64,000 nt of DNA from Candidatus Pacearchaeota archaeon (GCA_038890875.1 JAWAFA010000001.1:419910-483909), one strand, 5' to 3'. Shown: positions 9,762-37,385, counted from the stretch's first letter. Translations and numbers: made by a program. Notes: generated by a model not told the origin, from the sequence alone.

Positions 9762-11663
9762 TTAAATATCAAGTTCAGCTTCTTTTGCATGTTCAATGAT
9801 GAATTGTTTTCTTGGTTCAACTTTTTCTCCCATCAAAATCGTGAATGTTCTATCAGCTTCGATAGCATCTTCAATAGTAATTTGCTTTAGCTTTCTTGTT
9901 TTTGGGTCAAGTGTTGTTTCCCAAAGCTGTTCTGGGTTCATTTCACCAAGCCCTTTAAATCTCGTTACTTCAGCTTTTTCATCTTTAACTAAATCCTTCA
10001 ATTCATCTTCATTATAAACATAATAATCTTTATTCCCTCTTCTTACCCTATAAAGAGGAGGAACTGCTACATAGATATGCCCATTCTCAATAAGTTGAGG
10101 CATATATCTAAAGAAAAATGTTAGAAGTAATGTTTTAATATGCTGCCCATCGACGTCAGCATCGGTCATTATAATTATTTTACCATATCTAAGCTTTGTT
10201 AAATCAAATTCATCACCAACATTTGTACCAACACTTTTTATTAAGGCAGCTATTTCTTCATTGGCAAAAATTTTATTATGCCCTGCTTTCTCAACATTTA
10301 AAATTTTTCCACGGAGTGGTAATATAGCCTGAAATTCTTTGTTTCTTGCTTGTTTTGCACTACCTCCAGCACTGTCTCCTTCAACAATAAAAAGTTCAGC
10401 AATCTCTTTTTTTGTTGATGAACAATCGGCAAGTTTTCCTGGAAGATTCCCGGCAAAAAGAGCCCCTTTTCTTCTTACGAGCTCCTTAGCTTTTTTTGCC
10501 GCTTCTCTTGCTTTAGCAGCTTCGCTAACTTTTTGTAAGATTCTTTTGGCAATACTTAGATTTTCATCAAAAAATTGTGAAAGTTTATTATTGACAACAC
10601 TTTCAACAATTCCTTTAACCTCACTATTTCCAAGTTTTGTTTTTGTCTGGCCCTCAAACTGTGGATTCGGCAGTTTTACATTTATTATTGCTGTTAATCC
10701 TTCCCTCGTATCATCACCCATAATTTTTATTTTTGATTTTTCATCTGCATAATCGCTTAAAACTTTTGTTAAAGCTGTTTTAAAACCTATGACATGTGTA
10801 CCTCCTTCGATAGTATTAATAGTGTTAACAAAGCTAAAAATATGCTCAGTGTAACCATCAAAATACTGTAAAGCAATTTCTACAAACACTCCATTTTTTT
10901 GATCACTAAAATAAATTGGTTTATGTAAAGGATTTTTCTCTTTGTTCAACCATTCAATAAAATCAATAAGCCCGCCTTTAGAAATAAATCTTTCTTTTTC
11001 TCCAGAAGCCTCATTAATTAACTGTATTTCTAAATCTTTATTTAAAAAACTTAGTTCTTGAAGTCGGATTTTTATTAACTTTTGATCGAAGTTAATCGTT
11101 TTAAAAATTTCTGGATCAGGCCAAAACCTAACTTCTGTTCCTGTTTCATCTGTTGTTCCAATTACTTTAACAGGAGTTAAAGCATTACCTCGCTCATACT
11201 CTTGACAATAAATTTTTCCATCTCTATAAACTTTTACAATCATCTTCTTACTTAGTGCATTTACTACACTTGCTCCAACTCCATGGAGGCCTCCAGAAAT
11301 TGCATATACTTTATGATCAAATTTACCTCCAGCATGTAACATTGTCATCACTGTTTCAAGTGCTGATTTACCTGTTTCTTTGTGAATTTCTACAGGAATC
11401 CCTCGCCCATTATCTTTAACACTAACTGACCCATCTTTATGTAATGTAATTTTAATTGATGTGCAATATCCCGCCATTGCCTCATCAATGCTATTATCAA
11501 CAATCTCCCACATTAAATGATGTAATCCCTCTTTACCAGTGCTTCCTATATACATTGCCGGTCTTCGACGTACTCCTTCTAATCCTTTTAATACTTGTAT
11601 AGCTTCCGCTGTATAAGCTTTTGCTTTTTCTTTTTTTTCTTGTTTTTCTTTTTCGTCGGTCAT
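9762..11663 (-). CDS. gyrB: DNA gyrase subunit B.
   Basis: GHKL ATPase motifs (LHAGGKFD), the Toprim motif EGDSAGGSAKQARNKEFQAILPLRGKILNVEKA, and PLYR. Confidence 0.95.
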   Translation of the reverse strand: MTDEKEKQEKKEKAKAYTAEAIQVLKGLEGVRRRPAMYIGSTGKEGLHHLMWEIVDNSIDEAMAGYCTSIKITLHKDGSVSVKDNGRGIPVEIHKETGKSALETVMTMLHAGGKFDHKVYAISGGLHGVGASVVNALSKKMIVKVYRDGKIYCQEYERGNALTPVKVIGTTDETGTEVRFWPDPEIFKTINFDQKLIKIRLQELSFLNKDLEIQLINEASGEKERFISKGGLIDFIEWLNKEKNPLHKPIYFSDQKNGVFVEIALQYFDGYTEHIFSFVNTINTIEGGTHVIGFKTALTKVLSDYADEKSKIKIMGDDTREGLTAIINVKLPNPQFEGQTKTKLGNSEVKGIVESVVNNKLSQFFDENLSIAKRILQKVSEAAKAREAAKKAKELVRRKGALFAGNLPGKLADCSSTKKEIAELFIVEGDSAGGSAKQARNKEFQAILPLRGKILNVEKAGHNKIFANEEIAALIKSVGTNVGDEFDLTKLRYGKIIIMTDADVDGQHIKTLLLTFFFRYMPQLIENGHIYVAVPPLYRVRRGNKDYYVYNEDELKDLVKDEKAEVTRFKGLGEMNPEQLWETTLDPKTRKLKQITIEDAIEADRTFTILMGEKVEPRKQFIIEHAKEAELDI

Positions 11664-17569: not shown

Positions 17570-20500
17570 TTAATGGCGCACTTTTTTCACTATTATTGCC
17601 ACGGCTAGGATTACTATGATTAAACCAAGTAAAGCAATTATAGCAATATGCCAGTTGCTTTTTAACCAACCTATTACCCCACCAGTTACTGGGATTATGG
17701 GTAATCTGTCGACAAATAAGCCAATTATTGCTGCAGAGTCTACCAACGCTACTACTTTTCCATTCTCTTTATCCCAAACACTCTCTATTTTCCTCCATCC
17801 ACCACCTTCATAATTATAGATAAACAAGTTAGCTCCTTCAGCGAACTCCTCATTGATCTTTATTATTAACTCTACATCTTCACCGAATCTCACAGCTGGC
17901 GTAAACTTGTACGCTCGCACTAAATAAACATCTTGTGGCAATGTTGGAAGCAGCGTTAAATCAGTGATTTTTTCAATTTTTATAGTATTTGGATCGATTT
18001 TATTATTATTGTTATTTACTACCTCTATACTTGATAGTAGCCTCACTATTACTAATCTATCATCACTTTTTATTTCAATAGCCTTAACTTTTGGTTTTGG
18101 CGTTGTTGTAACTGTTAAATTTGGAATAATTTTGCAATCTTGCGGGCAATAAACACTTTCATTGCCTTCACAAATGTTATTGCCACATATTGGCGCTACG
18201 AGAGCTTCTCTTCCTCCTCCACCTCTTTCCTCTACTATCTTTTGCACAACTCTAAAACTAATTGTGCTCCATGCTGAAGTTCCGTGAACATCAGTAACCT
18301 TTACTTTGGCAATATACCTTCCTGGATTGTTATACGTATGAGTTGCTGTTGAAACATTTATTGCACTATAATCAAATGTCCCATCATTTGTCCAGTCCCA
18401 TTCATATGTTATATTATCATTTGTATTAAATTGTCCTCCTATTAATGCATTGAATGAAATCGATTCATCTTCATAATAAGGAGATGGGCTTGTGATAACA
18501 ATTCTTACAGATGGTAATGCAGAACTATTACTTAAGTTTAGTGGGGTGTTATTTGTTGCATTATAAGTGAAATTTGTTGTTATTATAGTACCATTATAAA
18601 GAACATTATCAGTAACATTTGCATCTATTAATGTCGCATTTCCGAGTGTTGAATTTGTTATAATTGTATTGGTTGCCGTTATATTCTCTAAATCAGAATT
18701 AATAACAGTACTATTATTTAAACTTGAATTATTTATTGTTGAATTTGTGACGTTGGAATCATTGAGCATAGAGTTTGTAATTGTTGAATTGTTTGTTGTT
18801 GAATTTGTTAAAGTTGAGTTTTCAATCTCAGAGTTTTCTACAGTTGAATTTATGAGCATTGAATTTGCAACTATTGAATCGCTAATATTACTATAATCCA
18901 AATTTGAGCTTTCAATTGTTGAGTTACTAATATTTGAATAGGTGATATTCGATTCGTTTATTATAGCCTTATCAACATTGGAGTATGTTATATTTGAATA
19001 ACTAACGTTGGAGTAAGTAACATTTGACTGATATGTGTGTGAGTTCGTTAAGTTTGAACCAGTTAAGTTGTTAGTTGGTTGTGGGGGGTCATAGATGCCA
19101 TCAGCAAGATAGCAGTTTGAAGCTATTATACCTTTAACTGTTGCATTGATTACCGTACAATTATTTAAAATTGAATTATTAATTATTGATGCTGTCGCAT
19201 TTACAGCCGTTAGCCAGGAATTTTCTACAGTTGAATTATCTATATTTGAATCTAAGATTAAAATATCCTCATTAAAGTTACCTCCAGCTGATGCTTTAAT
19301 GGTTGAGAAATTCTTTATTATTGAATCATTTATATTATTAAATATTCCTGTTGACTGACTCACATAGAATGTGCCGTTCACTGTCGAATTAAATATCCAG
19401 CCAGTGTCAAGAGTTACTACACTTGTTGTTGTTGATGTAATATTACTAATGCTTGTATTTGAATTGCTTGTTGCAATTACATTTACAATATAAACCCCTG
19501 GATTGGAATCACTAACAGTGAGACTAACTATATAACTTCCCCCTTGATTTAACATAGGAGTTGTTGTTTCATTCAAAATTGCTTGATCAGCATTATTAAT
19601 ATTTTGTATTGTTAAATTAAAGTTGTCTTGAGTATCGCCGATGTTTGTTATATTTATTGTATAAATGGCTGGCTCAAGTAAGCCGACAGTTTGTGATGAT
19701 GGAGTTGCTGTTATGCTTACACCATAGTCTGGAACTGGATTAACTGTTACAATAATAGTGTCATTTGCACTGTATTCGCCATCCGATGCTATAAGTGTAA
19801 CCTCAGCAATTCCATTCCAATTTGGATTTGCTGTTATATTAACTCTTGTGCCAACAAATGTGACGATAACATTACTATTATTTGAAGTAAATGAATAAAC
19901 TAATGTTGCATTATCAACATCCGCAAAGTAATTTGTCATGTCAAGGCTATCATTGTAACTATCTTCGTCGAAAGTTACATCTGGAATTAAGGTGATTAAG
20001 TAAGGAGCATCATTTACAGGGACAACATTTATTGTAACCGTGGCTATATTACTATTAGCTTCTCCATCATTAGCAACATATGTAAAGCTATCTATACCAT
20101 TAAAGTTTGCATTTGGTATATATGTGAAGGAACCGTCAGAGTTGAGAGTTAAGACACCATTGGAGACGTTTGTTACTAAGATTGCTGAAAGTATATCAAT
20201 ATCAATATCAGAATCATTAACTAATAACCCTTGAGCTGTGGGAACAGTTAAGATGTTATCCTCATTTGTGTTATAAACATCATTTTGTATAACTGGAGGC
20301 GTATTTTTTATATCTTTTACTACTGTTATATTACCAGAAAACTCTATTCCATCAAACGCGCCAGCAATTACCAACACATCATCATTTTTATTACAGCCAG
20401 CTGAGGTTAAGCAGTCGAATGTATTATTCGTAGACCAGGTTTGTAATATAACTCCTGTTGCATTATTTCTAAATTCATAATAATAAGTGATAATATCACC

Positions 20501-23341
20501 ATCAACATCGATTGAGCCTGTTGCATTAGCAATTAAGGTTGAACTCTTATAAGCTGGTGTTGGTTCAACTATCAAGCTTGGAGGAGTTGTTGGCGCGTCA
20601 TTTATAGGGTTAACTATAACAGTAACCGTTGCTATGTTTGAAATATTTGCACCATCATTAGCTATATACCTAAAGCTGTCTATTCCATACCAATCAGGTT
20701 CAGGTATATAAATGAAAGATCCATTTGCATTTAATACCAAATTACCATGAGAAACACTATTTACAAGGACGGCTGTTAGTGTATCACCATCTACATCACT
20801 ATCATTTGCTAAAACTCCAGGAGCAGAAATTGTAAGTATATCATTTTCATTTACACTATAAGTATCATCATTAGCAAGAGGAGCATCATTTACTGGACTC
20901 ACATTTATTGTTACAGTTGCAACAGAACTATTATCCATGCCATCACTTACTATATAGCTAAAGCTATCAATGCCGTTGAAGTTTGGATCTGGGGTGTATA
21001 TGAAAGAGCCGTCTGAGTTGAAAATTAAGTTACCATTGCTAACACTACTCACAAGAATTGCTGTTAATGTATCGCCATCAGTATCATTATCATTTGCAAG
21101 CACACCCGGAGCTGGAATGCTTAATGATTCGTCCTCCAAAATTTCATAATAATCATCATTTGCAATAGGCGCATTATTAATTACAGTTGTCGTTATATCT
21201 TGAGTTTCATTATATAATCCTGCATTTATTGTTGAATTGGCATAGACTCTAACTACATAACTTCCTGGAATGCTTGAACTCACGTCGAGCTGTACGAGCT
21301 TACTTTCGCCAGCTCCAAGAATTATAGAACTTTCATTTAGCCAGACATTTGCACCATTATAATTTATAACACCAAGCACAAAATTATTCCAAACATTCCC
21401 AGTGTTTGTTATATTAATAATGTAAGTTGCATTGGCATTTTTTGAAACTGTTCTTGCGTAACTATCACTCTCCAAGATAACACCAAGTTGCAAATCATTA
21501 CTAAATCCTCTCGTGCATTGCTGGAATTGCCAATCACTTAAAGTATTAGTATCTTGGCCATTTGGCACTCGTGCCCAGCAAAGATCATTGCCAAGAGTGT
21601 CGGCAAGATTATAAGATACATCATCAACAATCTGATTGAAGTTATCATACAAAGTTATATTTTCACCACCATTGTTCAATAAGTTTGATGCAGATCTGAT
21701 TAAGTAACTTCCAGCATTGATAATCTGATTTAATGGAAGCACATTTCCTGCAGCGTCACGAATATACCAGCCAGTGACATTAACATCATTTGCTGTCGGG
21801 TTATAAAGCTCTATCCAATCTCCGCTAGGAGTTCCGTTATTGCTTTCAAATTCATTTATGATAATAGCTGGTGGTGGTAAGAGTACAGTAAAGGCAACAG
21901 ATGCGCTTGCTAAATTTCCACTAGTGTCATTTGCCCATGCCTCAATTACATGCATGCCTTGAGCAAAAGTTTGTAAAATTGAATTTGTATATGTTATATT
22001 CACCCCCCCATCAATACTATACCAAACCTGATCAATAGCTACGTTATCGCTAGCACTAATATTTATCAAAATATCGCTTACAGTGTATGTTATGTTTTCA
22101 GGACTAACGATTATTATACTAGGAGCTTGTGTGTCTTGCACAGAAATATTAAAGCTAACACTTGCCGAGCCAACATTGTTGCTTACATCTTGAGCATAGA
22201 TGAATAGTGTATATGCACTATTTGCCAAGGTAAGAGTTGTGTTCTGGCAGCCTGGCAAGTTTTGAGGGGCCCCACCATTTAAAACATACCAACAAGCAGC
22301 TATACCATCATCATCAGAGACAATATAGTTTAATGGAATTGGCAATGATGCATAAGTTTGACCATCTTCAGGGCTAATTATAATGACACTTGGAGCATTG
22401 ATATCCCCAACTATGATTTGTTTTGTTGTACTTCTTTCATCACCATCAGCATCTCTTGCTGTCAACACAACATCGTAAGTGCCAGGCATGTTATAAGCAT
22501 GGCTTACACTTTGGCCATTTGCAATACCACCATCACCAAAATCCCAGCTAAAAGTAAGTGGTGCATCAAATGCTGTTCCACTCGCAATGAAACTTACGAC
22601 TTGGCCTATTGACGGAGAGCTCGGAGAAAAGCTGAAATCAATATTTTCAGGGACAGTATCTATAATGGTAACTCTCCAACCAGCAGAGGCTGTATTACCT
22701 CTACCATCACTTACAATAACTGCTATGTCAAAAACTTGAGCATCATTTACATTTGGTAGCTGCAATAGAAAGCTGTTTCCGCTTGCACTCTGTTGCTGAT
22801 TGTTGACATACCAAGTATAACTCAAAGTATCGCCATTTGGATCACTGGCAATTACAACAAAACTTTGTTGCAGTACGGCTTCACTTACACTAAAGGTATC
22901 TTGTGATGGGCTTTTGCTTGTTATTTGCGGTGGCTGATTAGATCCTTCAAAATAAATCCTTAATGTTTCACTTGTTGCGGTTTTGCCGCTTTTATCTTTT
23001 GTTCTTGCGTAAAAACTATGCCAGCCTGCTGTGTTATGCGTTACAATAGTTTGTAATGCACATGTACTAAAACCAGCACAATCTTTTTCAGAATAGAGTG
23101 CACCATCTTCATAAAGCCATATTTTTATAAGTCCAGCATTGTCGTCAATATCAATCCCATTGGCAAGTAGCGTAGATTGTGAAAATATTGGATTATGTGA
23201 AATTTCGCTTAGGGTAATCTTCGGAGCATAGTCATAAGCTTTTGCTAATTTGAGCATAAATAAGCTAAACATAAATATACTTATTACTAAAAAAGCCAAT
23301 ATCTTTCTATTCATCTTATAATTAATTTTAATGTTTACCAT
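17570..23341 (-). CDS. Giant (1923 aa) cell-surface protein. Domain order: signal peptide/TM, Ig-like repeats, lamin-tail domain, three cadherin-like repeats, NST-x-x pentapeptide repeat tract, PKD domain, Cys-rich stalk, C-terminal TM anchor.
   Basis: N-terminal hydrophobic MNRKILAFLVISIFMFSLFML. LTD signature PPPAIIINEFE...DWIELYNPT...VNVTGWYIRD. Three ~100-aa repeats, each ending VNDAP (DGDTLTAxLVxSVSxGNL...NGIDSFxY). A tract of NSTVENSEIENSTLTNSTTNNSTITNS... PKD-like WDWTNDGTFDY...HTYNNPGRY. C-terminal IAIIALLGLIIVILAVAIIVKKVRH. Very many N-x-S/T sequons. Confidence 0.85.
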   Translation of the reverse strand: MVNIKINYKMNRKILAFLVISIFMFSLFMLKLAKAYDYAPKITLSEISHNPIFSQSTLLANGIDIDDNAGLIKIWLYEDGALYSEKDCAGFSTCALQTIVTHNTAGWHSFYARTKDKSGKTATSETLRIYFEGSNQPPQITSKSPSQDTFSVSEAVLQQSFVVIASDPNGDTLSYTWYVNNQQQSASGNSFLLQLPNVNDAQVFDIAVIVSDGRGNTASAGWRVTIIDTVPENIDFSFSPSSPSIGQVVSFIASGTAFDAPLTFSWDFGDGGIANGQSVSHAYNMPGTYDVVLTARDADGDERSTTKQIIVGDINAPSVIIISPEDGQTYASLPIPLNYIVSDDDGIAACWYVLNGGAPQNLPGCQNTTLTLANSAYTLFIYAQDVSNNVGSASVSFNISVQDTQAPSIIIVSPENITYTVSDILINISASDNVAIDQVWYSIDGGVNITYTNSILQTFAQGMHVIEAWANDTSGNLASASVAFTVLLPPPAIIINEFESNNGTPSGDWIELYNPTANDVNVTGWYIRDAAGNVLPLNQIINAGSYLIRSASNLLNNGGENITLYDNFNQIVDDVSYNLADTLGNDLCWARVPNGQDTNTLSDWQFQQCTRGFSNDLQLGVILESDSYARTVSKNANATYIINITNTGNVWNNFVLGVINYNGANVWLNESSIILGAGESKLVQLDVSSSIPGSYVVRVYANSTINAGLYNETQDITTTVINNAPIANDDYYEILEDESLSIPAPGVLANDNDTDGDTLTAILVSSVSNGNLIFNSDGSFIYTPDPNFNGIDSFSYIVSDGMDNSSVATVTINVSPVNDAPLANDDTYSVNENDILTISAPGVLANDSDVDGDTLTAVLVNSVSHGNLVLNANGSFIYIPEPDWYGIDSFRYIANDGANISNIATVTVIVNPINDAPTTPPSLIVEPTPAYKSSTLIANATGSIDVDGDIITYYYEFRNNATGVILQTWSTNNTFDCLTSAGCNKNDDVLVIAGAFDGIEFSGNITVVKDIKNTPPVIQNDVYNTNEDNILTVPTAQGLLVNDSDIDIDILSAILVTNVSNGVLTLNSDGSFTYIPNANFNGIDSFTYVANDGEANSNIATVTINVVPVNDAPYLITLIPDVTFDEDSYNDSLDMTNYFADVDNATLVYSFTSNNSNVIVTFVGTRVNITANPNWNGIAEVTLIASDGEYSANDTIIVTVNPVPDYGVSITATPSSQTVGLLEPAIYTINITNIGDTQDNFNLTIQNINNADQAILNETTTPMLNQGGSYIVSLTVSDSNPGVYIVNVIATSNSNTSISNITSTTTSVVTLDTGWIFNSTVNGTFYVSQSTGIFNNINDSIIKNFSTIKASAGGNFNEDILILDSNIDNSTVENSWLTAVNATASIINNSILNNCTVINATVKGIIASNCYLADGIYDPPQPTNNLTGSNLTNSHTYQSNVTYSNVSYSNITYSNVDKAIINESNITYSNISNSTIESSNLDYSNISDSIVANSMLINSTVENSEIENSTLTNSTTNNSTITNSMLNDSNVTNSTINNSSLNNSTVINSDLENITATNTIITNSTLGNATLIDANVTDNVLYNGTIITTNFTYNATNNTPLNLSNSSALPSVRIVITSPSPYYEDESISFNALIGGQFNTNDNITYEWDWTNDGTFDYSAINVSTATHTYNNPGRYIAKVKVTDVHGTSAWSTISFRVVQKIVEERGGGGREALVAPICGNNICEGNESVYCPQDCKIIPNLTVTTTPKPKVKAIEIKSDDRLVIVRLLSSIEVVNNNNNKIDPNTIKIEKITDLTLLPTLPQDVYLVRAYKFTPAVRFGEDVELIIKINEEFAEGANLFIYNYEGGGWRKIESVWDKENGKVVALVDSAAIIGLFVDRLPIIPVTGGVIGWLKSNWHIAIIALLGLIIVILAVAIIVKKVRH
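18650..19075 (-). repeat. Intragenic tandem 15-nt/pentapeptide coding repeats (NST-x-x units) inside the giant surface-protein gene.
   Basis: Repeated gttgaatttgt / attgaattat-like units on the plus strand. They encode N-S-T/N-x-T pentapeptides, likely a beta-helix or glycosylated stalk. Confidence 0.6.
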
Positions 23342-25197
23342 TTTGCCTTAAAACCTAGATAAATTTCCCCAGATTTAATTTTGTTGCCAACAGTATTCAT
23401 TTCACCGCATCCAAAAATTCCCCAACTTTTTCTTTTTCCTTCACTACAAACACTGTAACTATTACGATTTTGATTTGTATCTAGAGAATATTTACTTTCA
23501 ACTCCCCACTTTTCATTTCCATAACCAAAAGTGAAACCATAATTAGGTCGATTCTTGTCAAAGTTAACATCAACACCACCATAAAAGCTTGTTGCATTTA
23601 ATAACTTTTCTATATCATTAATCTTATTCAAACCTTCAGGATTTGGTAGATAATTTAAATAAATTTTGTGTTGCCTATTGAAATAATTATTATTACCATA
23701 CCAAAGCGAGATTTTGTTATTTGCATCATCTTTGAAATAATTAATGATTAACGAGTTAGGACCAATATTATAAGCAAAATTTAAAATACCTTCGACATGG
23801 TCAGTGTTATCCACATTAGGTCCAATATTAACAAGAGGGACAAATTTTAATTCTAACTCTTTATGCTTATACTCTAAACTCGCTCCTATAGGAAAAACTC
23901 TTTTAATCTCTCTCATTTTGTCACTATATGATATTGTGTCATAATTTTGTATTTCGAAAGTATCACAAGAAACCTCTTCACCATTTATATAAACACATGT
24001 TGTGCCAGATGTTTTATTATTAACAATCTCTACTAAATCTAACTTATTCTTCACTCTACTTTCTTCGATCCCTCCGATTATCCCTCCATAAAGCCTTCCA
24101 ATTTTTTGCTTTGCTTTAATTCTTGCTTTTGTTAAAAGTTCATCTGTTTTGCTTTTTCCATTAACATTAATAAATGTTTCAATATCGCCTTGTGTTACCG
24201 TTCTAATTTCAAAAGGATTGTTCGTTATGTCTTCTTCGTAAAAAGGAGTTATTTCTTGATAAGTCTCATTTATATCATCTCTACTCATCTTAGTAGTAAT
24301 ACTAACATTCCCTTCAATATTCAAGAAGGCATTCTTCCAACCAATAGAGCCATGATATATCATTGGCATTTCTAATAAAGTTCCTTTTTCTTTTTTTTCA
24401 AAACTAATGCCCAGATCTCCATAGATATCACTTTCTCTACCTTTTCCGATCCCTTTCCTTCCCTCTCCAAACAACGTTACTCTTTGTTCTTTTCTTCCTC
24501 CCGTACCAAAAAAGAATACCTCAATATTATCTCTATTATTTTCACCAACATTTACTTTTGCATCATAACTAACAATTCCTTGACTATTATAATCTAAATC
24601 TCCTAAAAAAGAGACTGAACTAGGTTTTATTATTTTTATCTCATTTTGTCGAGGTGGTATTTGAGGTTTGATTTGCAATAGTTCTTGAGGTTTTGGCTTT
24701 TCTTTCTTTTCTTTTTCTTTGATGATAGTTTCAACTTGCTCAGAAATTATCTCTTCTTCTTTAGGTTTTTTCTTAACTTCTTGTGCCATCATCTCTTTTT
24801 TTTCTCCTTTGAATAAAACCCCATAAGATTTAGGATCGATTAATTTTTTAATCTCGTCCAAATTATTTGGTTGTAATGAGTAAACATAACCTCCTGCTTT
24901 AACAAAAATCTCTTGAGAATTATTTTGAATAAAAACTAATGTTACGGGATCAGACAAGTTTAAGCAATTACTAAGCACTGTTTGAATCTCAGGATCAACT
25001 ATTGTATACTCTGTTCCAAGTGAATATTCAATAGCTTTTACAGATGTTTTGTAGTCTTTACTTTCTTTTTTACTCCAAAAATCTTCAGCTCTTGGGCATC
25101 CTGACTGGTTTTCTAACCCTTGTGTTAAACCAAGACTACCAAGAGCAATTCCCAAAGCAAAAATTATGCTCTCCAGAGTTCTTTTCAATTTTGTCAT
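23335..25197 (-). CDS. Secreted 620-aa protein with a beta-strand-rich, OMP-like C-terminal domain. Co-transcribed with the giant surface protein (7-nt overlap).
   Basis: N-terminal signal peptide (IIFALGIALGSLGLTQG). Central K/E-rich linker. C-terminal approx. 300 aa with alternating hydrophobic dyads (FTFGYGNEKWGVESKYSL, GEIYLGFKAKW) ending in W. Confidence 0.55.
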   Translation of the reverse strand: MTKLKRTLESIIFALGIALGSLGLTQGLENQSGCPRAEDFWSKKESKDYKTSVKAIEYSLGTEYTIVDPEIQTVLSNCLNLSDPVTLVFIQNNSQEIFVKAGGYVYSLQPNNLDEIKKLIDPKSYGVLFKGEKKEMMAQEVKKKPKEEEIISEQVETIIKEKEKKEKPKPQELLQIKPQIPPRQNEIKIIKPSSVSFLGDLDYNSQGIVSYDAKVNVGENNRDNIEVFFFGTGGRKEQRVTLFGEGRKGIGKGRESDIYGDLGISFEKKEKGTLLEMPMIYHGSIGWKNAFLNIEGNVSITTKMSRDDINETYQEITPFYEEDITNNPFEIRTVTQGDIETFINVNGKSKTDELLTKARIKAKQKIGRLYGGIIGGIEESRVKNKLDLVEIVNNKTSGTTCVYINGEEVSCDTFEIQNYDTISYSDKMREIKRVFPIGASLEYKHKELELKFVPLVNIGPNVDNTDHVEGILNFAYNIGPNSLIINYFKDDANNKISLWYGNNNYFNRQHKIYLNYLPNPEGLNKINDIEKLLNATSFYGGVDVNFDKNRPNYGFTFGYGNEKWGVESKYSLDTNQNRNSYSVCSEGKRKSWGIFGCGEMNTVGNKIKSGEIYLGFKAKW

Positions 25198-31960: not shown

Positions 31961-32401
31961 CTAACTCTGTAAATTTTTAATTTCTTCTTCAATGATTTTG
32001 ATTTCGTTAAGAATTTTTTGCGCTTCATTGCTAAGAATAGTTTTTAACATTGAAAGTTCTTCTATTCTTGCTTCAATAATCTTTTTAGCATCTTCAGAAC
32101 TCTTTTCTAAAATAACATTCTTACCAACATTTATTAATACTTTATCATTTTCTAATGCTTTAGCCATCACAAAAATACCTTCAGCCAGATTCGCGAGTAT
32201 TTCTTTATCTTTAATTTTTTTTACTTCATTTAAATTTTGTTTTGTTAATTCGAGACTGATAATGTTTTGTTCAAGTATTGCATATTGTTCTTCTATTCTC
32301 CTCAACTCTTGATCAAGTGCTAAAAGCTGTAAACCTCTTTCCTGAATTATTCTTTTTTCTTCTTTTTCTTTTGCTTGTTTTTCTTTACTCTCTTTTTCCA
32401 T
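31961..32401 (-). CDS. pfdA: Prefoldin alpha subunit.
   Basis: Coiled coil - beta hairpin - coiled coil. Central EILANLAEGIFVMAKALENDKVLINVGKNVILEKSSEDAKK matches the prefoldin-alpha hairpin. Confidence 0.6.
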   Translation of the reverse strand: MEKESKEKQAKEKEEKRIIQERGLQLLALDQELRRIEEQYAILEQNIISLELTKQNLNEVKKIKDKEILANLAEGIFVMAKALENDKVLINVGKNVILEKSSEDAKKIIEARIEELSMLKTILSNEAQKILNEIKIIEEEIKNLQS

Positions 32402-32413
32402 TTATCTTTTATC

Positions 32414-32881
32414 TTACTGTATTTTTAAAACTTTCCTTAAAACAATATTAAAAATCGAAGTAAAAATTATGAATGAAAGCAACCAGCCAGCACCATCCCC
32501 AACAATAGGCAAATTAGCTCCCCAACTTATTATATTCCCAACACCAGCAGCATCATAACTTTTTTTCAAAAACCAGAAAATAAAAATTAAAGGTAATAAT
32601 ATGATTAACAATGGTTTTATGCTTAATCTCATATTTTCCATACTTAACTTTACTAATTCATTATTCAATTCTTTTATCCTTTTTATATCGTTTGTTTTTT
32701 TCAATTCATCGCTGATAGTTTTCTGTTTTTCTTTTATCTCTTTTATCCTTCCCTGATCACTCAATACTTTGAACACCAAAACCTGAAAGAAAGTAATTAA
32801 TAATGAAATAATGATTATGCTAATTAAGCCAGGAGGTAGGCCTCCCAAACTATATGCAATAAATTCTGTCCAAAAACTCAT
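32414..32881 (-). CDS. DUF106 / EMC3-TMCO1-like membrane protein (archaeal YidC/Oxa1-like insertase candidate).
   Basis: TM1, then charged coiled-coil (KEIKEKQKTISDELKK...), then two further TM helices. 155 aa. Confidence 0.4.
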   Translation of the reverse strand: MSFWTEFIAYSLGGLPPGLISIIIISLLITFFQVLVFKVLSDQGRIKEIKEKQKTISDELKKTNDIKRIKELNNELVKLSMENMRLSIKPLLIILLPLIFIFWFLKKSYDAAGVGNIISWGANLPIVGDGAGWLLSFIIFTSIFNIVLRKVLKIQ

Positions 32882-32882
32882 T

Positions 32883-33173
32883 TTATTTTTTGTAATATTT
32901 TTTTACTACATTTATCAATCTTAAAAATAAAAACTCTTCATTTTCAAATATCTTCTTTTTTTCACTTTCATTCATTGGCGCTTCATTGAGGATATTTCTT
33001 AACTTTTCAACAAATCGATCTCTTCTAGACATATCAAGAATAGCCCAAACTTCATAGTTATTGTTAGGTAAGATAACCCCAATCTTTTCACATCCATCTC
33101 TCTCGTAATAAATATTATATCCTAACTCTACTTTGAATTTTTTTTCATTTTCCCTTTCGATATGCTCTTTCAT
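32883..33173 (-). CDS. Hypothetical 96-aa protein, last gene of the RSH-like module.
   Basis: 20-nt gap after the RSD gene. No motif recognised. Confidence 0.3.
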   Translation of the reverse strand: MKEHIERENEKKFKVELGYNIYYERDGCEKIGVILPNNNYEVWAILDMSRRDRFVEKLRNILNEAPMNESEKKKIFENEEFLFLRLINVVKKYYKK

Positions 33174-33193
33174 TTTAACTTTTTTAAACTTAT

Positions 33194-34273
33194 CTAACTT
33201 TGTTTTTCTTCATTTTCTTTTTCCATAATATAATTGTATAGCCCCTTTATAATTTTTTGTTTCTCTTTTGGGATATTCACTTTATTTAGATTTTCTTTAT
33301 ATCTTTCCAAATAAGCATTTCCAAACTCATTATTCTCTAAACTTTCTTTATCTGTAAATCTTACTTCAATACCTTCAATAACATTCGGCTGTCTTAAATT
33401 ATAATGCAAAGCATTATAACCGCTTTTTTCTTTTTTTTCTACACATTCTTTTATACAAAAATATTTCCCAATTCTACTAATTATGCTTTCAGCCAATTTA
33501 TAAAACTCTTTTCCAAAAATTTTATATTTTAAGACAAAATTAACTCCGCCAAGATCATCAATACATAGTTCACTTTTAATTTCATTATTTTTTTGATCTT
33601 CAATATAGTTTTTAATGACCTTACAAATGTCACTATCTTGTAAAGTTTTAATTATGCATCCAGGAATTTCACGAATCTTCTCATGTATCCTTACATTATC
33701 AGTTTTTAATATCAATTTTTTTAAAATGCCATCGTACTTACTTAATGAATTAACTGCTACACTAGTCCTTATCCTGCTTTTTAATGAAGCATAACTATTT
33801 GTAATCCCCTCCTTTAGCGTTTTTATTTCTGACTCTAAACATATAATATCTACTCCAAATTTAAGAAAATTTGGAATTTCTTTTTCAATCTTTTGGGCAA
33901 TACCAAAAATCTTTTTTTTAATTACTTTGTCAAGAAAACTTTTAGATTTCTTTACTCTAGTTATTATTGCTTCAATATCTTTTGTATTTATTGGGTAATA
34001 CTTCATATCGATCTCCATATCATATCTCATATCTTTTTCTACTTTTTGATTTTTTAATAGTGCGGCATATTCACTTCTTTTTTCTAAAATTACATACTTG
34101 AATTTATTTTCTGGAATGAATAATCTCACTATTCTTTCTAGATTCTCTTTTGTTTTATTTCTCCTATCTTTTAAAAGCAAATAAATTGGTTCAAACAGGC
34201 TTTCATCATCTTCATTTATGCATTTATAAATATATTGCCCTACAGGTATTTCTGCAATTTCAATCCTTTCCAT
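33194..34273 (-). CDS. RelA/SpoT-homologue synthetase-domain (RSD) nucleotidyltransferase protein (small-alarmone-synthetase-like) with an about 170-aa N-terminal extension.
   Basis: C-terminal region SRIRTSVAVNS...IREIPGCIIKT...SGYNALHYNLRQPN...IEGIEVRFTDKES...NEFGNAYLERYK parallels RelA/SpoT synthetase motifs (RxKxxxSi, DixGiRvi, GYqSLH, vEvQIRT, AhhGxAAHwxYK). Confidence 0.6.
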   Translation of the reverse strand: MERIEIAEIPVGQYIYKCINEDDESLFEPIYLLLKDRRNKTKENLERIVRLFIPENKFKYVILEKRSEYAALLKNQKVEKDMRYDMEIDMKYYPINTKDIEAIITRVKKSKSFLDKVIKKKIFGIAQKIEKEIPNFLKFGVDIICLESEIKTLKEGITNSYASLKSRIRTSVAVNSLSKYDGILKKLILKTDNVRIHEKIREIPGCIIKTLQDSDICKVIKNYIEDQKNNEIKSELCIDDLGGVNFVLKYKIFGKEFYKLAESIISRIGKYFCIKECVEKKEKSGYNALHYNLRQPNVIEGIEVRFTDKESLENNEFGNAYLERYKENLNKVNIPKEKQKIIKGLYNYIMEKENEEKQS

Positions 34274-34274
34274 T

Positions 34275-35402
34275 TTATCGCAACGTTTTTTCCAATTTAT
34301 AAATTCCTGGAATTAATTTGAATTTTCTTCTTTTCATTTTTTCTGCAAATTTTTTAAACCCAATCAAATCAAGATGGGCTCTTAATTCAATATTGCTCGC
34401 ACTATCTAAATCTAAACCTAAAGTTTCCTCTTTTGCATAGCCAAGAAGAATTTTGCCATATCTCATCCATGTTCCATCAAGTAAATTAGGTGAAGGGAAA
34501 GTTGCTCTTTCAAAACCGCGGCTCTTATCATAATTAGCAACAAGTTCATAATTCTTCTTTATTACATCTTTCGTCAAGCTCACCATTTCTTCGAAATAGT
34601 ATGTCCATGCTTGCGCTCTTTCTTCGATACTTTCTACAAGTTTTCTCGTAAGACATTGCACTTTCTTATAGAACTTTTTCTCTTTCTTTAATCCCTTAAT
34701 CTTTGTTTTAACTTCATTTGTTAAGAGGAGACCTTTATAAAATGAATAAAGAGCTGATTGAACATTAAAAGGGCTCTTTTCTGCTTCAAGTGGTGTTGGC
34801 AAGGATTTAATATTATCGAGCATGTCGGCAAGTTTTATTTCTATAGAACGCATAATGATTATATTTTTATCTTTGTGATTAAATCGGTATTCAATAAAAT
34901 CTTTTATTTTATCTACCCTAGCCTTATTATTCCCATTTTGTTCTATTTGTTTTTTTATTTTTTCATTTAACTCATTGATTACTTCTTTGTTATAGAAGAG
35001 ATTGTAGAGATAGTCAAAATAGGTTTGGTTTGGTTGTTTTGTTAATCTATATACAAGTTGTAAGATAAAGTTATAATCTCTTTTATATTTTTCATCGAGC
35101 AAGTTAAATCTCTCATAAAGCTCATAAAGTTTAAATGCAAAAGCTGTTAGCTCTTGCCAAAAATTATTGATATCACTTTTACCCTTTATCTTTTCTTCAA
35201 TCGTGTCATGAAGTAAAGCAGACGCTTTAATGATATAACTTTCACTTATCTGATTTAAGTAGCGGCAAACATTTTTAGGATGTTCAATAAATGGACTACC
35301 ATTTTTTCTGAAACTTCCTTTATGATAAGTCAAGGCTAAGCCTTCAAACTCATCAATAAGCTTTTTTTCCAAATCTTCAAATTTAATATTCATATTTTTC
35401 AT
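34275..35402 (-). CDS. RelA/SpoT-type HD-domain (p)ppGpp-hydrolase-like protein (SAH-like) with an about 180-aa C-terminal extension.
   Basis: GSPFIEHPKNVCRYL...ASALLHDTIEE (HD motif as in Rel/SpoT: GePYIxHPLxVA...AALLHDvvED) and IEIKLADMLDNIKSL (Rel/SpoT KLADRLHNMRTL motif). 1-nt spacing to the RSD gene. Confidence 0.65.
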   Translation of the reverse strand: MKNMNIKFEDLEKKLIDEFEGLALTYHKGSFRKNGSPFIEHPKNVCRYLNQISESYIIKASALLHDTIEEKIKGKSDINNFWQELTAFAFKLYELYERFNLLDEKYKRDYNFILQLVYRLTKQPNQTYFDYLYNLFYNKEVINELNEKIKKQIEQNGNNKARVDKIKDFIEYRFNHKDKNIIIMRSIEIKLADMLDNIKSLPTPLEAEKSPFNVQSALYSFYKGLLLTNEVKTKIKGLKKEKKFYKKVQCLTRKLVESIEERAQAWTYYFEEMVSLTKDVIKKNYELVANYDKSRGFERATFPSPNLLDGTWMRYGKILLGYAKEETLGLDLDSASNIELRAHLDLIGFKKFAEKMKRRKFKLIPGIYKLEKTLR

Positions 35403-35468
35403 TTTTGTATATTTAATAATTCAATATTTATAAACATTTTTATTTTTTATCACTTTAGAATTAAAAAA

Positions 35469-35891
35469 TTACTTACTTATTTTCTTTGTTAACTCTTCAA
35501 ATTTTCTAAGTTTTTCTTCCCCCATTTCAGCCTTAAGCTTTTCCCTTAACTTTTTGCTTTTTCTAATTCTAAGCATAATCAAATGTTCAAGAAAGTAGGT
35601 AAATATAAAAAATAAAAAAATTATTATTGCTGCTATAAGCGGGCCTAGCATTTTCAATAGCGCCCCAACAAGCATTGCTATTACACCAGTCATAGCCAAT
35701 ATTATAACAAGCCCTAAAGTAATAAAAAAAATAGTTATTGATGAAAAAAGAGTGATGTCTTTGATTATACTATAAAACCAGGCCAAAAAGAAAATCAGAA
35801 CAATCCCACACAACCCAAACAAAACTAGATCAGTACTTCTTGTTCCAAAGAGTGCTTGTAAAAGGCCTATCCATGAAAAAGTTAGAGGCAT
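35469..35891 (-). CDS. Small membrane protein, member of a four-gene paralogous tandem array (C-terminal ...KLRKFEELTKK).
   Basis: 3-4 TM helices. C-terminal amphipathic tail sharing the FEELTK motif with 36501..37046. Confidence 0.45.
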   Translation of the reverse strand: MPLTFSWIGLLQALFGTRSTDLVLFGLCGIVLIFFLAWFYSIIKDITLFSSITIFFITLGLVIILAMTGVIAMLVGALLKMLGPLIAAIIIFLFFIFTYFLEHLIMLRIRKSKKLREKLKAEMGEEKLRKFEELTKKISK

Positions 35892-35935
35892 AAATACTTA
35901 ATCAAAAAGATTTTAAATAATTTTTTGATTAATTA

Positions 35936-36499
35936 TTATTTGAATTTGCCAACTTCTTTTAATATTTCCATACCCTTCTTAATTTCTACTCCTTTTTTAT
36001 GCGCTTCTATCATTGCTTTTCTTCTAAAGATCCATTTGTTAAACCCAGATAAACCAAGATGAACAATTACTAAAGCAACAAAAGCACTTACTATGACTAT
36101 GGCAACAGCCAAAACACCAAGCCCAGCTGTGATGCCAAAGATATAATGTGCTAACTTCAAAATCCCTTTTGTTAAGGCTGCTATAACTGCCAAACCAAAG
36201 CCCAGAATGTAAGAAGTACTTTTCTTAAACATGGTGAAAGTTTCTATTATATCACTAAATGCAAAGAAAAGCATGAAAAAAATCACAACAAGGATTGTAA
36301 CAAAACGCCAATCAGCTCCGGTGGTTAGTGCACTATAGCCAAAAGCATCAGCAATCCACTTTCCTATGGCTCTGCCAATATCTCCAATTGAAGTAGCTTG
36401 TCCACCTTGTGCAAGAATAAAAGGCGAAATAAATAAAAAAGAGACTAGTAATAAAGCAATAAGTTTCCACGCTTTTTTACTTTTCATTTTCTTTTTCAT
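35936..36499 (-). CDS. Secreted/membrane protein, paralogue of 36501..37046 (signal peptide ending ILAQGGQ).
   Basis: Signal peptide + 4 TM. Shares N-terminal ...LAQGG and overall topology with the upstream paralogue. Confidence 0.45.
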   Translation of the reverse strand: MKKKMKSKKAWKLIALLLVSFLFISPFILAQGGQATSIGDIGRAIGKWIADAFGYSALTTGADWRFVTILVVIFFMLFFAFSDIIETFTMFKKSTSYILGFGLAVIAALTKGILKLAHYIFGITAGLGVLAVAIVIVSAFVALVIVHLGLSGFNKWIFRRKAMIEAHKKGVEIKKGMEILKEVGKFK

Positions 36500-36500
36500 T

Positions 36501-37046
36501 TTATTTTGTTAATTCTTCAAATTCTTTAAGTTTTCGCCATGCTGTTGCTGGTTCCATTGCTCCCTTCAAAGCTTCAGCCTTAACTTTTCTCTTGAGCGCC
36601 CACTTAAAAGCCTTATCAGAATACCATGCTAGTCCAATAAAAATTATAAATGCAAGCACAAGTTCAGCTGTAACTGCAAATGCACCTAATGTAGCTACTA
36701 ATCCAAGTAGTAAAGAAGCCAGATATGTTAGAGCTCTACTTAAAGCAATAATAAAACTCAAACCAATTGAAATTATTAATACTGTTCGGCGTGAAAAAAA
36801 AGGTGCAGTCAAAGCTAAAATATCAACAAAAGCCGATGCAAAAATCAAAATTAATAAGATAAAAAGTAATAATTGGCCGACAGTGGTTACATCAGAAAAA
36901 CCAAACAGCCATTTGAGCCATGTAGGTGTCTTAAGTGGTGCATTAAGCCCTCCCTGCGCCAAAACAAATGAGGGAAGAAATATGAACGCAAGCAAAAAAA
37001 TAATTGATATTGGAACAATAAATGAAAGCGATTTACTCTTTTTCAT
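36501..37046 (-). CDS. Secreted/membrane protein, paralogue (signal peptide ending FVLAQGG; C-terminal KLKEFEELTK).
   Basis: Same architecture as 35936..36499. Same C-terminal motif as 35469..35891. Confidence 0.45.
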   Translation of the reverse strand: MKKSKSLSFIVPISIIFLLAFIFLPSFVLAQGGLNAPLKTPTWLKWLFGFSDVTTVGQLLLFILLILIFASAFVDILALTAPFFSRRTVLIISIGLSFIIALSRALTYLASLLLGLVATLGAFAVTAELVLAFIIFIGLAWYSDKAFKWALKRKVKAEALKGAMEPATAWRKLKEFEELTK

Positions 37047-37064
37047 TATAAAATATTAAAATGC

Positions 37065-37385
37065 CTATTTAAAAACTTTTTGTTTACTCTTGCCAATACC
37101 TAGATGCCTAAGCATAAACAATATAAAAATTATGGCAAGCACTATAGCAAGAGCTACTGCAAAGCCGCCTGCACTGACTTGCAAGATCTTAAGCGCAAGA
37201 GCTCGTGTCAAGCCTGTCTGCAAGGCAATTAGTGTTATTATTAAAGCTATGATTGCTGCGAAGGGTTTTTTAAACAAGCGCAATCTACTCAGAATATCAA
37301 AAAGAATAACGAAGATGATCAAAATTAGTATAAAAATTAAAATATTTTGCGTTACACTTTCGCCGAGCACTTTTGCAAGCACCAT
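37065..37385 (-). CDS. Small membrane protein, probable fourth member of the paralogous array.
   Basis: TM pattern ALQTGLTRALALKILQVSAGGFAVALAIVLAIIF aligns with the core helices of the other three. Confidence 0.4.
   Translation of the reverse strand: MVLAKVLGESVTQNILIFILILIIFVILFDILSRLRLFKKPFAAIIALIITLIALQTGLTRALALKILQVSAGGFAVALAIVLAIIFILFMLRHLGIGKSKQKVFK

Follow-up and report, generated by a model that had tools for sequence, protein, structure and literature searches.

In the window, i.e., the whole 64,000-nt stretch of DNA analyzed, three minus-strand genes were recognized as one cassette (Table 1). The source organism is labeled by NCBI as Candidatus Pacearchaeota (DPANN), a tiny-genome archaeon. 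The two larger ORFs, of 375 and 359 aa, were both real and separated by a 1-nt gap (TAA a ATG), as the initial annotation had described. The strings it had reported were read again in the translations, i.e., GSPFIEHP, ALLHDTIEE, and IEIKLADMLDNIKSL in the HD protein, and SGYNALHYNL, GIEVRFTDKES, and NEFGNAYLERYK in the synthetase-like protein. The 96-aa ORF and the membrane protein gene (former DUF106) that it had placed next after the pair were also found. Its central claim, a Rel/SpoT-type HD hydrolase gene adjoining an RSH-synthetase-like gene in a DPANN archaeon, was supported by the following results.

Direct reading of the sequence revealed a TATA-box-like element, TTTATAAATA, in the 66-nt spacer that separates the HD gene from the upstream membrane-protein gene, and this element may serve as the cassette promoter for a leaderless transcript. 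Because such strings are common in a genome of 68% A+T, the element counts as weak evidence.

Table 1. Coordinates of the cassette genes, their predicted parts, and neighboring features, counted from the first letter of the window.
Feature	Position	Strand	Evidence or remark
TATA-box-like element, TTTATAAATA	35425..35434	(-)	23-32 nt upstream of the HD start codon
Gene 1, Rel/SpoT-type HD (SAH-like) phosphohydrolase, 375 aa	34275..35402	(-)	TIGR00691, PDB, HD_4, and PHROG matches
HD residues 22-80, motifs YHkGxxRKxGxPfIEHP and LLHDxIE	35163..35339	(-)	HMMER alignments to Rel/SpoT/RelA structures
HD residues 184-201, MRSIEIKLADMLDNIKSL	34800..34853	(-)	Secondary HMMER domain alignments, family alignment
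HD C-terminal region, residues ~205-375	34278..34790	(-)	Family alignment
Gene 2, divergent RSH synthetase-fold (RSD/SYNTH) protein, 359 aa	33194..34273	(-)	
RSD residues 106-121, RVKKSKSFLDKVIKKK, predicted R-x-K-xxx-S-xxx-K ATP-phosphate-binding motif	33911..33958	(-)	Invariant columns, hhalign
RSD residues ~141-235, inserted alpha/beta subdomain	33569..33853	(-)	AF2 secondary structure, hhalign
RSD residues 236-330, predicted catalytic core	33284..33568	(-)	Invariant columns, hhalign, PF04607 positions 10-111, register test
Gene 3, 96-aa protein	32883..33173	(-)	Position shared by the four lineages with the cassette
EMC3/TMCO1 (former DUF106) membrane protein	32414-32881		PF01956, E=3.7e-5; prefoldin gene next

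The HD protein was matched by NCBIfam TIGR00691 (E=5.7e-9) over residues 23-80 only, i.e., the HD motif region, and by PHROG 990, 'metal-dependent phosphohydrolase' (E=1.4e-12). When the profile of the HD family was searched against PDB, all 18 matches were RSH/Mesh1/SAH hydrolase domains, with a best value of 9e-8. Pfam HD_4 was matched by each of the four family members (best E=8.8e-5), and the window protein, at 14.4 bits (E=0.032), did not reach the PF13328 gathering score of 27.2 bits. R32, H41, H65, D66, and E69 were invariant across five lineages in the family alignment. The same was true of D193 and N197 in MRSIEIKLADMLDNIKSL, which corresponds to the Rel motif vRviLvKLADRLHNMRTL. In alignment to Rel/SpoT structures, the H...HD...D metal-binding tetrad and the Rel-specific Arg, Glu, and Asn were all kept, and the residue that follows E69, the Asp position of the ED diad, varied as E/N/T in the family. 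These alignments showed gene 1 to encode a putative HD protein of the Rel/SpoT/Mesh1 class, in which the predicted H..HD..D metal site is intact.

The extra domain assigned earlier to the C-terminus of the HD protein was recovered as ~170 aa, but the assignment was incomplete, and the alignment revealed a further insertion of ~60 aa between the HD and KLAD motifs. The C-terminal region, which had no Pfam match, keeps LYSFYKG, GFER, and DGT..RY..ILLG in all lineages. The AF2 model of the HD protein, made from a two-sequence alignment, was all-helical and too poor for a fold search (pLDDT 53.5).

The RSD protein gave no significant match in Pfam, NCBIfam, PADLOC, or PHROGs. Its expected membership of PF04607 was not borne out for the window protein alone (E=1.2, 9.8 bits vs. 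a cut-off of 27). The other members scored 19.1 (P0002), 19.2 (P0005, the family best), and 12.9 bits (P0006), all under 27, and PF04607 was the sole Pfam family common to all four members. Nothing relevant was found in PDB by phmmer or hmmsearch with RSD profiles of one, two, or four sequences, and an HMM built from 11 RSD sequences did not find the window RSD ORF. Profile-profile comparison was significant (P=4e-6). In hhalign, the RSD family scored 35.0 against 11 genuine RSDs with the full protein and 44.1 with an inserted subdomain excised, which raised the probability from 32% to 87%. Shuffled-column nulls scored 13-14 ± 2.3 (maximum 21), and the observed score was reached by 0 of 150 shuffles. 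Because the RSD motifs are invariant among members just 33-55% identical and the hhalign scores lie far above the shuffled nulls, the motifs are more than chance.

In Foldseek search of the RSD model against PDB, the top 19 matches were all RSH synthetases, and the top matches in BFVD were phage Tas1 and a phage RelA/SpoT protein. RSH domains took all top places in the fold ranking and stood above every other NTase by 1-4 Z units. The structural comparison showed that gene 2 has the RSH synthetase fold.

The R-x-K-xxx-S-xxx-K motif is formed by R106, K108, S112, and K116, which are invariant in the RSD family. Their hhalign partner is GRPKHIYSIWRK of RelA, and the R-x-K motif was paired with E. 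coli RelA from residue 251 on (GRPKHIYSIWRKM). This motif is also where the PF04607 match of P0005 begins, at profile position 1. The motif had been overlooked in the initial annotation, and the single N-terminal extra domain of ~170 aa proposed there had to be abandoned, as the RSD fold begins near residue 100. The extra material consists of an N-terminal part of ~95 aa and an insertion of ~95 aa, neither of which had a Pfam match. The insertion separates the RxK helix from the catalytic Asp strand and is foreign to canonical RSH synthetases.

Four motifs were assigned in the core, i.e., I-D240-x-G-G243 (Asp strand), K283-S-G-Y286-x-A-x-H290 (G-loop Tyr/His), E300-G-I-E303-V-R305 (Glu strand), and E316-F-G-x-A-Y-xx-R-Y325-K326. 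The invariant D240 and G243 were aligned to D-x-x-G-x-R, whose Arg position is N/N/N/A in the RSD family. G285, Y286, and H290, also invariant, were aligned to NGYQSIH (G-loop G-Y-x-S-x-H, with the acceptor-stacking Tyr). Invariant E303 and R305 lie on the strand equivalent to E-x-Q-x-R-T. In the register test for the catalytic Glu, two registers were rated equal, i.e., E303 at this position scored 2.1 and G301 scored 3.2 (E303 then falls on the Gln), and the others scored -9 or less. The ungapped register, which also matches E316, G318, Y325, and K326, places E303 on the Glu. The alignments thus showed that gene 2 keeps the predicted ATP-phosphate-binding residues R106, K108, and K116, the putative catalytic Asp D240, the putative acceptor-stacking residues Y286 and H290, and a candidate Glu/Arg pair.

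The 96-aa protein had no match in Pfam, NCBIfam, PADLOC, or PHROG. It is the fastest-evolving cassette member, i.e., its identity to the window copy was 56% in lineage L001, 25% in L018, and undetectable in L017, and an invariant Tyr lies close to its C-terminus. For the other two proteins, the identities to L001, L018, and L017 were 71, 46, and 40% (HD) and 55, 40, and 33% (RSD). The flanks were slower than the cassette, i.e., ~63% for the EMC3-like protein and 52-65% for prefoldin.

The three genes were found at the same locus and in conserved order in four Pacearchaeota lineages. In a fifth lineage (L019), the cassette is missing, and the flanks are directly adjacent, i.e., a TM187-like gene, a TM140-like gene, a 28-nt spacer, and the EMC3-like gene. 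The 96-aa ORF is absent from this empty site and shares one unit of presence and absence with the HD and RSD genes. A weak match between the small protein of L018 and a 98-aa ORF of L019 (tblastn E=0.001) was rejected as homology because the L019 ORF resembles ribosomal protein L14e and the aligned part falls in a tail rich in K and E. The HD and RSD genes, 1 nt apart in the window, overlap by 10 nt and 8 nt in relatives, and the RSD gene and the 96-aa ORF are spaced by 20 nt. This arrangement showed the cassette genes to be translationally coupled and, as judged from their distribution, inherited or lost as a single unit.

The HD gene was frameshifted in one contig (L018). The shift falls within a run of A and leaves each half whole, which is compatible with assembly error. 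The idea that the pair is one frameshifted gene was rejected, as the two genes are separate, with different spacings and overlaps, in three further lineages. Codon differences between near-identical strains, summed over three non-independent pairwise comparisons, were 16 synonymous vs. 2 non-synonymous in RSD and 30 vs. 14 in HD. Both genes are under purifying selection.

The family was limited to four 50%-identity clusters among 1.84 billion representatives, all from Pacearchaeota. A GTDB genome scan returned one locus, which was already known, and a metagenome scan anchored on the EMC3-like neighbor returned one locus, the empty site of L019. No relatives were found in the viral contig scan. 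There was no PADLOC defence-system match and no membership in a validated toxSAS subfamily. Apart from A/T-rich chance matches, the flanks carried no direct or inverted repeats, a tRNA was not found nearby, and Rfam elements were absent. In GC, GC3, and amino-acid composition, the cassette stayed inside the gene-to-gene spread of the window (RSD GC 0.257; mean 0.318, sd 0.035). Because repeats, tRNA, Rfam element, and composition anomaly were all lacking at the locus, neither a recent horizontal insertion nor a mobile-element origin is supported. A single locus on the housekeeping strand, in lineages down to 33% identity, looks like vertical inheritance rather than mobility.

Among known systems, the closest layout considered was the aTfaRel-faRel-aT2faRel operon of Cellulomonas marina. 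In its descriptions (Jimmy et al. 2020, PMC7229694; Kurata et al. 2024, PMC11782079), the RSD gene is likewise flanked by an HD-domain SAH gene and a small domain-less protein. There as here, a synthetase and the hydrolase that opposes it share a tight, overlapping operon, a likeness that leaves aside the side on which the SAH gene lies relative to faRel. Conserved overlapping SAS operons were the criterion of toxSAS discovery (PMC7229694), and the SAS gene studied here stands in a tight or overlapping conserved operon with a SAH gene and a small gene. However, by sequence the cassette could not be assigned to FaRel or to any other toxSAS subfamily. Its HD protein is about twice the size of an SAH and has a conserved C-terminal region, and its RSD protein differs from FaRel in the N-terminal part, the inserted subdomain, and the lack of the DxxGxR arginine. 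The host is an archaeon, and the chromosomal position is fixed among housekeeping genes.

Unlike RelP and RelQ (SAS2/SAS1; PDB 6fgk, 6ewz, 5dec), which PDB sequence search with the RSD protein did not detect, the RSD protein has a subdomain between the first helix and the Asp strand, no arginine after the Asp motif, and a shorter loop ahead of the GY Tyr (K-S-G-Y vs. P-K-x-N-G-Y). The HD protein resembles SAH, Mesh1, and the hydrolase domains of Rel and SpoT (HD_4; PDB 7oiw, 6s2t, 4yf1, 5vxa, 7smg) in its N-terminal ~80 residues, the KLADxLxN motif, and the conserved R32, H41, H65-D66, E69, D193, and N197. It differs from them in its score under the Pfam gathering threshold, the ~60-aa insertion, the ~170-aa C-terminal extension, and the unconserved second residue of the ED diad. 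With long bifunctional RSH (Rel/SpoT), the cassette shares both catalytic domain types in hydrolase-then-synthetase order, but it has two genes in every lineage, other extra domains, and no TGS, helical, ZFD, or ACT region. Neither TGS nor ACT was matched in the cassette proteins by Pfam or NCBIfam.

The three-gene cassette of HD hydrolase, RSD pyrophosphokinase, and small protein is probably a very divergent, lineage-restricted branch of the RSH superfamily. The RSD protein is predicted to take the beta-gamma pyrophosphate from ATP and attach it to an acceptor 3'-OH, possibly that of a purine nucleotide, yielding (p)ppGpp or (pp)pApp, or that of the tRNA CCA end. The HD protein would strip the same pyrophosphate off again, and therefore the cell would carry a self-contained make-and-break pair. 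The acceptor is not readable from the sequence. According to Kurata et al. (PMC11782079), tRNA-targeting toxSAS have no clear signature.

Tentatively, and only slightly ahead of plain stress signaling, we lean to the reading that the cassette would work like the bacterial three-gene faRel toxSAS operon. By analogy with faRel, the RSD enzyme would arrest growth, the HD protein would be a type IV antitoxin destroying its product, and the small protein may be a type II-like antitoxin that binds and blocks the enzyme. Candidate sensor or regulatory elements would be the N-terminal part of the RSD protein and its inserted subdomain. This toxin-antitoxin-like reading is favored because the cassette evolves faster than its flanks and forms a conserved overlapping operon. 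The absence of PADLOC match, viral relatives, repeats, tRNA, and composition anomaly, together with the fixed locus among housekeeping genes, was noted as running against a toxin-antitoxin or defence role.

Ordinary alarmone signaling is a possible, somewhat doubtful reading in its own right. The SAS and SAH pair would then set (p)ppGpp or (pp)pApp on starvation or host contact, the 96-aa protein would be a regulator or unrelated, and the system would be housekeeping-like where present. The stable position in four lineages, where the neighbors in an operon-like run are membrane proteins, the EMC3-like insertase, and prefoldin, agrees with signaling, as do the purifying selection and the lack of mobility or defence signatures. 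In bacteria, a SAS without hydrolase is seldom tolerated, and organisms with only SAS and SAH exist (PMC3153485); ~21% of Pacearchaeota are reported to carry RelA/SpoT annotations (PMC8407392). However, the cassette is dispensable in L019, a sister lineage of similar divergence, the family is limited to its four clusters, and all three genes evolve much faster than their neighbors.

It is unlikely that the RSD-fold protein is a pseudo-enzyme or a nucleotidyltransferase of other chemistry, with the HD protein being a general metal-dependent phosphohydrolase for another substrate and the RSH likeness merely ancestral. Such a reading would account for the lost DxxGxR arginine, the large inserted subdomain, the sub-threshold HMM scores, the variable second residue of the ED diad, and the ambiguous Glu register, since one register puts Gly/Met at the catalytic Glu position. 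But a dead site is hard to square with R106, K108, S112, K116, D240, G243, Y286, H290, E303, R305, Y325, and K326 being invariant at 33% identity. Moreover, RSH domains outrank all other NTases in the fold ranking, and the partner is a Rel-type, not a generic, HD protein in all lineages.

Least likely, and quite improbable, is a remnant of a bacterial long RSH (Rel), horizontally acquired, split in two, and drifting toward loss, with adjacency as history rather than a working two-gene system; the HD-then-SYNTH order, the predicted bacterial origin of DPANN RelA/SpoT genes (PMC8407392), the L018 frameshift, and the absence from one lineage fit it, but no trace of TGS/ACT is left, conserved extra sequence of ~170-190 residues has been added to each protein, both genes are under purifying selection, and the frameshift is compatible with assembly error. 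The initial description of a split long RSH gained no support, as a TGS/ACT region is missing, the extra domains are not what a plain fission would leave, and each of the four lineages has the two genes apart. Because they are separate with different overlaps at 33-40% identity, the split is considered old and maintained.

The statement that RSH proteins are rare and patchy in archaea is correct for archaea in general (PMC3153485, PMC8646023) but overstated for DPANN (PMC8407392). The significance of the cassette is limited by its very narrow distribution, i.e., four 50%-identity clusters, all in Pacearchaeota. To our knowledge, nothing has been tested so far in the DPANN genomes annotated with RelA/SpoT. 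The cassette, as two short clonable genes and a third, makes archaeal use of alarmone-type chemistry directly testable, with D240, E303, and Y286 (synthetase) and H65 and D66 (hydrolase) as predicted catalytic residues.

The cassette shows that RSH diversity reaches past what the models of Pfam, NCBIfam, and PADLOC detect. Therefore, the alarmone and toxSAS systems of archaea and other under-sampled lineages have probably been undercounted in surveys. It is conceivable, although doubtful, that the cassette is a previously unrecognised archaeal RSH system, in which a dedicated, enlarged hydrolase and a small protein that binds would keep a sensor-decorated pyrophosphokinase in check. Its active-site variant, with the DxxGxR Arg missing and the G-loop shortened, may point to a new specificity for acceptor or donor. 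On this reading, the cassette would be either the first DPANN-native toxSAS-like module for growth arrest or antiviral action, or the first demonstrable archaeal alarmone producer.

A cassette of three minus-strand genes was found in the window, i.e., a Rel/SpoT-type HD hydrolase-like gene (HD), a RelA/SpoT homologue (RSH) synthetase-like gene (RSD), and a small ORF. The HD and RSD ORFs were separated by 1 nt (..TAA a ATG..). All peptide strings that the initial annotation had quoted for these two proteins were found in the translations. Its guess of a DPANN host was also right, since identical public proteins are labelled 'hypothetical protein, Candidatus Pacearchaeota archaeon'.

Coordinates of the cassette genes and their downstream neighbours in the window
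Feature	Position	Strand	Basis or placement
HD ORF, 375 aa	34275-35402	minus	ORF reading
RSD ORF, 359 aa	33194-34273	minus	ORF reading
Small ORF, 96 aa	32883-33173	minus	ORF reading
EMC3/TMCO1-like (former DUF106) membrane protein	32414-32881	minus	downstream of 96-aa ORF
Prefoldin	31961-32401	minus	after EMC3/TMCO1-like gene

Four small membrane proteins (106, 181, 187, and 140 aa) were encoded immediately upstream of the cassette (35469-37385, minus strand), and no Pfam match was found for them. At least the 181- and 187-aa proteins were paralogues, and two of the four had a near-identical K/E-rich C-terminal tail in DNA (35480-35514 and 36500-36534, 86% identical). These small proteins were kept in the cassette-bearing relatives L001-L004 and L018, and some had homologues in L019, a cassette-free metagenome contig. 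Elsewhere in the window, a 1923-aa ORF (17570-23341, minus strand) was overlapped by 7 nt by a 620-aa ORF (23335-25197).

The HD protein was searched against curated single-sequence models, where its matches were sub-threshold yet specific. The scores were 20.2 bits for Pfam HD (cut-off 22) and 14.4 bits for HD_4 (cut-off 27.2). NCBIfam TIGR00691 (spoT_relA) matched residues 23-80 (E=5.7e-9), and PHROG 990, 'metal-dependent phosphohydrolase', also matched (E=1.4e-12). The 18 PDB sequence matches of the protein and its family profiles (best 9.1e-8) were exclusively hydrolase domains, i.e., those of Rel, SpoT, RelA, Mesh1, SAH, and one (p)ppApp hydrolase. By HMMER, MRSIEIKLADMLDNIKSL was aligned with vRviLvKLADRLHNMRTL. 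The equivalents of the Rel metal and catalytic residues, R32, H41, H65-D66, E69, D193, and N197, were invariant in the HD proteins of five lineages, and the position that follows E69, where the ED diad has its Asp, was variable (E/N/T). An insertion of ~60 aa separates the HD and KLAD motifs. The C-terminal region of ~170 aa was conserved and had no Pfam match. The AlphaFold model, built from a two-sequence alignment, was poor (pLDDT 53.5).

The RSD family is very small. Three clusters were recovered when 1.84 billion representatives were searched exhaustively with the profile, and with the close relative P0002 four members are known. The window protein alone had no significant match in Pfam, NCBIfam, PADLOC, or PDB. 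This includes the PF04607 (RelA_SpoT) match proposed as a check in the initial annotation, which gave E=1.2; however, PF04607 was the sole family common to all four members when scanned one by one (P0002, 0.0016; P0005, 0.0015; P0006, 0.13). The invariant columns of the four-member alignment fall in five blocks in RSH order, i.e., R106-V-K108-xxx-S112-xx-D-K116, D240-x-G-G243-xx-F, K283-x-G285-Y286-x-A-x-H290-Y, E300-xx-E303-x-R305, and F317-G-x-A-Y-xx-R-Y325-K326.

The family was aligned by hhalign with a reference of 11 genuine RSH synthetase domains, which came from E. coli RelA, from four RSHs of the long type, and from six proteins annotated as small synthetases in plasmid records. The family scored 35.0 (P=4.7e-4) at full length, and cutting out the predicted inserted subdomain raised the score to 44.1 (P=4.2e-6, probability 87%). 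Column-shuffled nulls scored 13-14 ± 2.3 and at most 21, so the observed score was reached in 0 of 150 shuffles; reversed sequences scored 14. The AlphaFold model from the four-sequence alignment was confident (pLDDT 82.2, pTM 0.80). The top 19 Foldseek hits of this model in the PDB were all RSH synthetases, and the top hits in a viral structure library were a Tas1 and a RelA/SpoT protein, both from phages. With the HD matches, RSD motifs, hhalign, and Foldseek, the core reading of a Rel/SpoT-type HD and RSH synthetase-like gene pair was confirmed, and both proteins are placed in the RSH superfamily, RSD by fold and motifs and HD by its motifs.

The RSD protein nevertheless departs from canonical RSH synthetases. 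Its RxK helix and Asp strand are separated by an inserted alpha/beta subdomain of ~95 residues (~141-235), and an additional N-terminal part of ~95 residues is present. Extra regions in both proteins had been annotated initially; they stand, with the RSD layout corrected to these two parts and the HD insertion added. The canonical DxxGxR arginine is replaced by N/N/N/A across the family, with the invariant R305 and R324 as candidates to take its place, and a shortened loop precedes the stacking Tyr. From sequence, the Glu-strand register was ambiguous (score 2.1 with E303 at the catalytic Glu, 3.2 with G301, and ≤ -9 in every other register). The ungapped register with E303 at Glu also matches E316, G318, Y325, and K326 to the AExG...YK motif and agrees with the predicted strand and helix boundaries. 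We infer E303 as the favoured catalytic Glu position.

The entire neighbourhood was syntenic with the window in the close relatives L001-L004. In L017, the most distant member (33% identity to the window RSD, 40% to HD), the order of HD, RSD, small ORF, EMC3-like, and prefoldin genes was kept, the genes upstream differed, and HD and RSD overlapped by 8 nt. In L018, the HD gene was present, though frameshifted. The contig L019 is of comparable divergence (EMC3-like 54-63%, prefoldin 55-66% identical), and in it a spacer of 28 nt separates the EMC3-like gene from the preceding genes, which resemble those of the 187- and 140-aa membrane proteins. Homologues of HD, RSD, or the small ORF were not found there within 10 kb either side. 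Therefore, the three genes form a presence/absence cassette between the 140-aa membrane protein and EMC3-like genes, gained or lost as a block. The adjacent pair first annotated holds as a unit, extended from two genes to three by the small ORF.

Two side observations concern these loci. The L018 HD gene is split at ~1925-1945 in an A-rich run (..TATAAAAATATAAT..), with both halves open and conserved, KLSDMIDN included; this could be recent pseudogenisation, programmed slippage, or an assembly error, the last because of the A-run site and the intact halves. In L019, a 98-aa ORF (10538-10834, plus strand) with a KOW-like N-terminus (RGKERNMPCVIVDVIDKNFVVIDG) separates the EMC3-like gene from prefoldin and appears similar to ribosomal protein L14e; no L14e-like gene occupies this position in the window.

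Evolution is faster in the cassette than in the flanking genes, and fastest in the small ORF. Identities to the window in L001, L018, and L017 were 71, 46, and 40% for HD, 55, 40, and 33% for RSD, and 56%, 25%, and undetectable for the small ORF, against ~63% for the flanking EMC3-like protein and 52-65% for prefoldin. The EMC3-like protein was about equidistant among the window, L001, L017, and L018, whereas HD/RSD identity fell from 71/55% to 40/33%; cassette rates are therefore very uneven between lineages. Among near-identical strains, RSD and HD are under purifying selection, with 16 synonymous and 2 non-synonymous codon differences in RSD, and 30 and 14 in HD (sums over the same three non-independent pairwise comparisons).

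The RSD protein has the RSH fold and conserves the residues for donor-phosphate binding, metal binding, and acceptor stacking; its gene is translationally coupled to that of a Rel-class HD protein with an intact metal site. The RSD protein may catalyse ATP-dependent pyrophosphorylation of a 3'-OH, which the HD protein would undo. The candidate acceptors are GDP/GTP, ADP/ATP, or the tRNA CCA end, among which the sequence does not discriminate. According to Kurata et al. (PMC11782079), no clear sequence signature marks the toxSAS that target tRNA, and tRNA pyrophosphorylation is reversible by some SAHs.

By analogy, the cassette is tentatively considered toxSAS-like, because of the overlapping operon, block-wise presence/absence, rapid evolution, most of all in the small ORF, and the faRel operon, a close architectural parallel of the three-gene cassette. 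A Tyr near the C-terminus of the 96-aa protein (32883-32925, minus strand) was invariant in all lineages (KKYYKK, IYRE, RYDL). In the toxSAS antitoxins ATfaRel2 and pZFD-CapRel, neutralisation is mediated by a C-terminal YXXY motif (PMC11782079), and the Tyr may be comparable to it, as a lead only. A role in signalling is a possible and only slightly less probable reading. It is favoured by a locus fixed among housekeeping genes, by inheritance that appears vertical, and by the absence of signatures of mobility or defence. No meaningful flanking repeats, nearby tRNA, or Rfam element were found at the cassette, no viral relatives or PADLOC model were found for it, and its composition lies within the spread of the genome. 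It is unlikely that the RSD enzyme is inactive or differently active, or that the cassette is a decaying split long RSH.

The rarity of RSH proteins, as first annotated, stands for archaea as a whole (PMC3153485, PMC8646023) and needs correction for DPANN, where RelA/SpoT annotations are reported from ~21% of Pacearchaeota genomes (PMC8407392). Since toxSAS subfamilies were also reported from 'even some archaea', RSH-like genes in DPANN are not new per se. No experimental study of any archaeal RSH was found in the literature searched, and curated HMM thresholds would call neither protein. The novelty of the cassette is the inserted subdomain, the absent DxxGxR arginine, the enlarged HD partner, the archaeal (DPANN) host, and the three-gene organization at a fixed locus. 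Tempered by its very narrow distribution, the cassette is relevant to the RSH and TA fields and to archaeal signalling.
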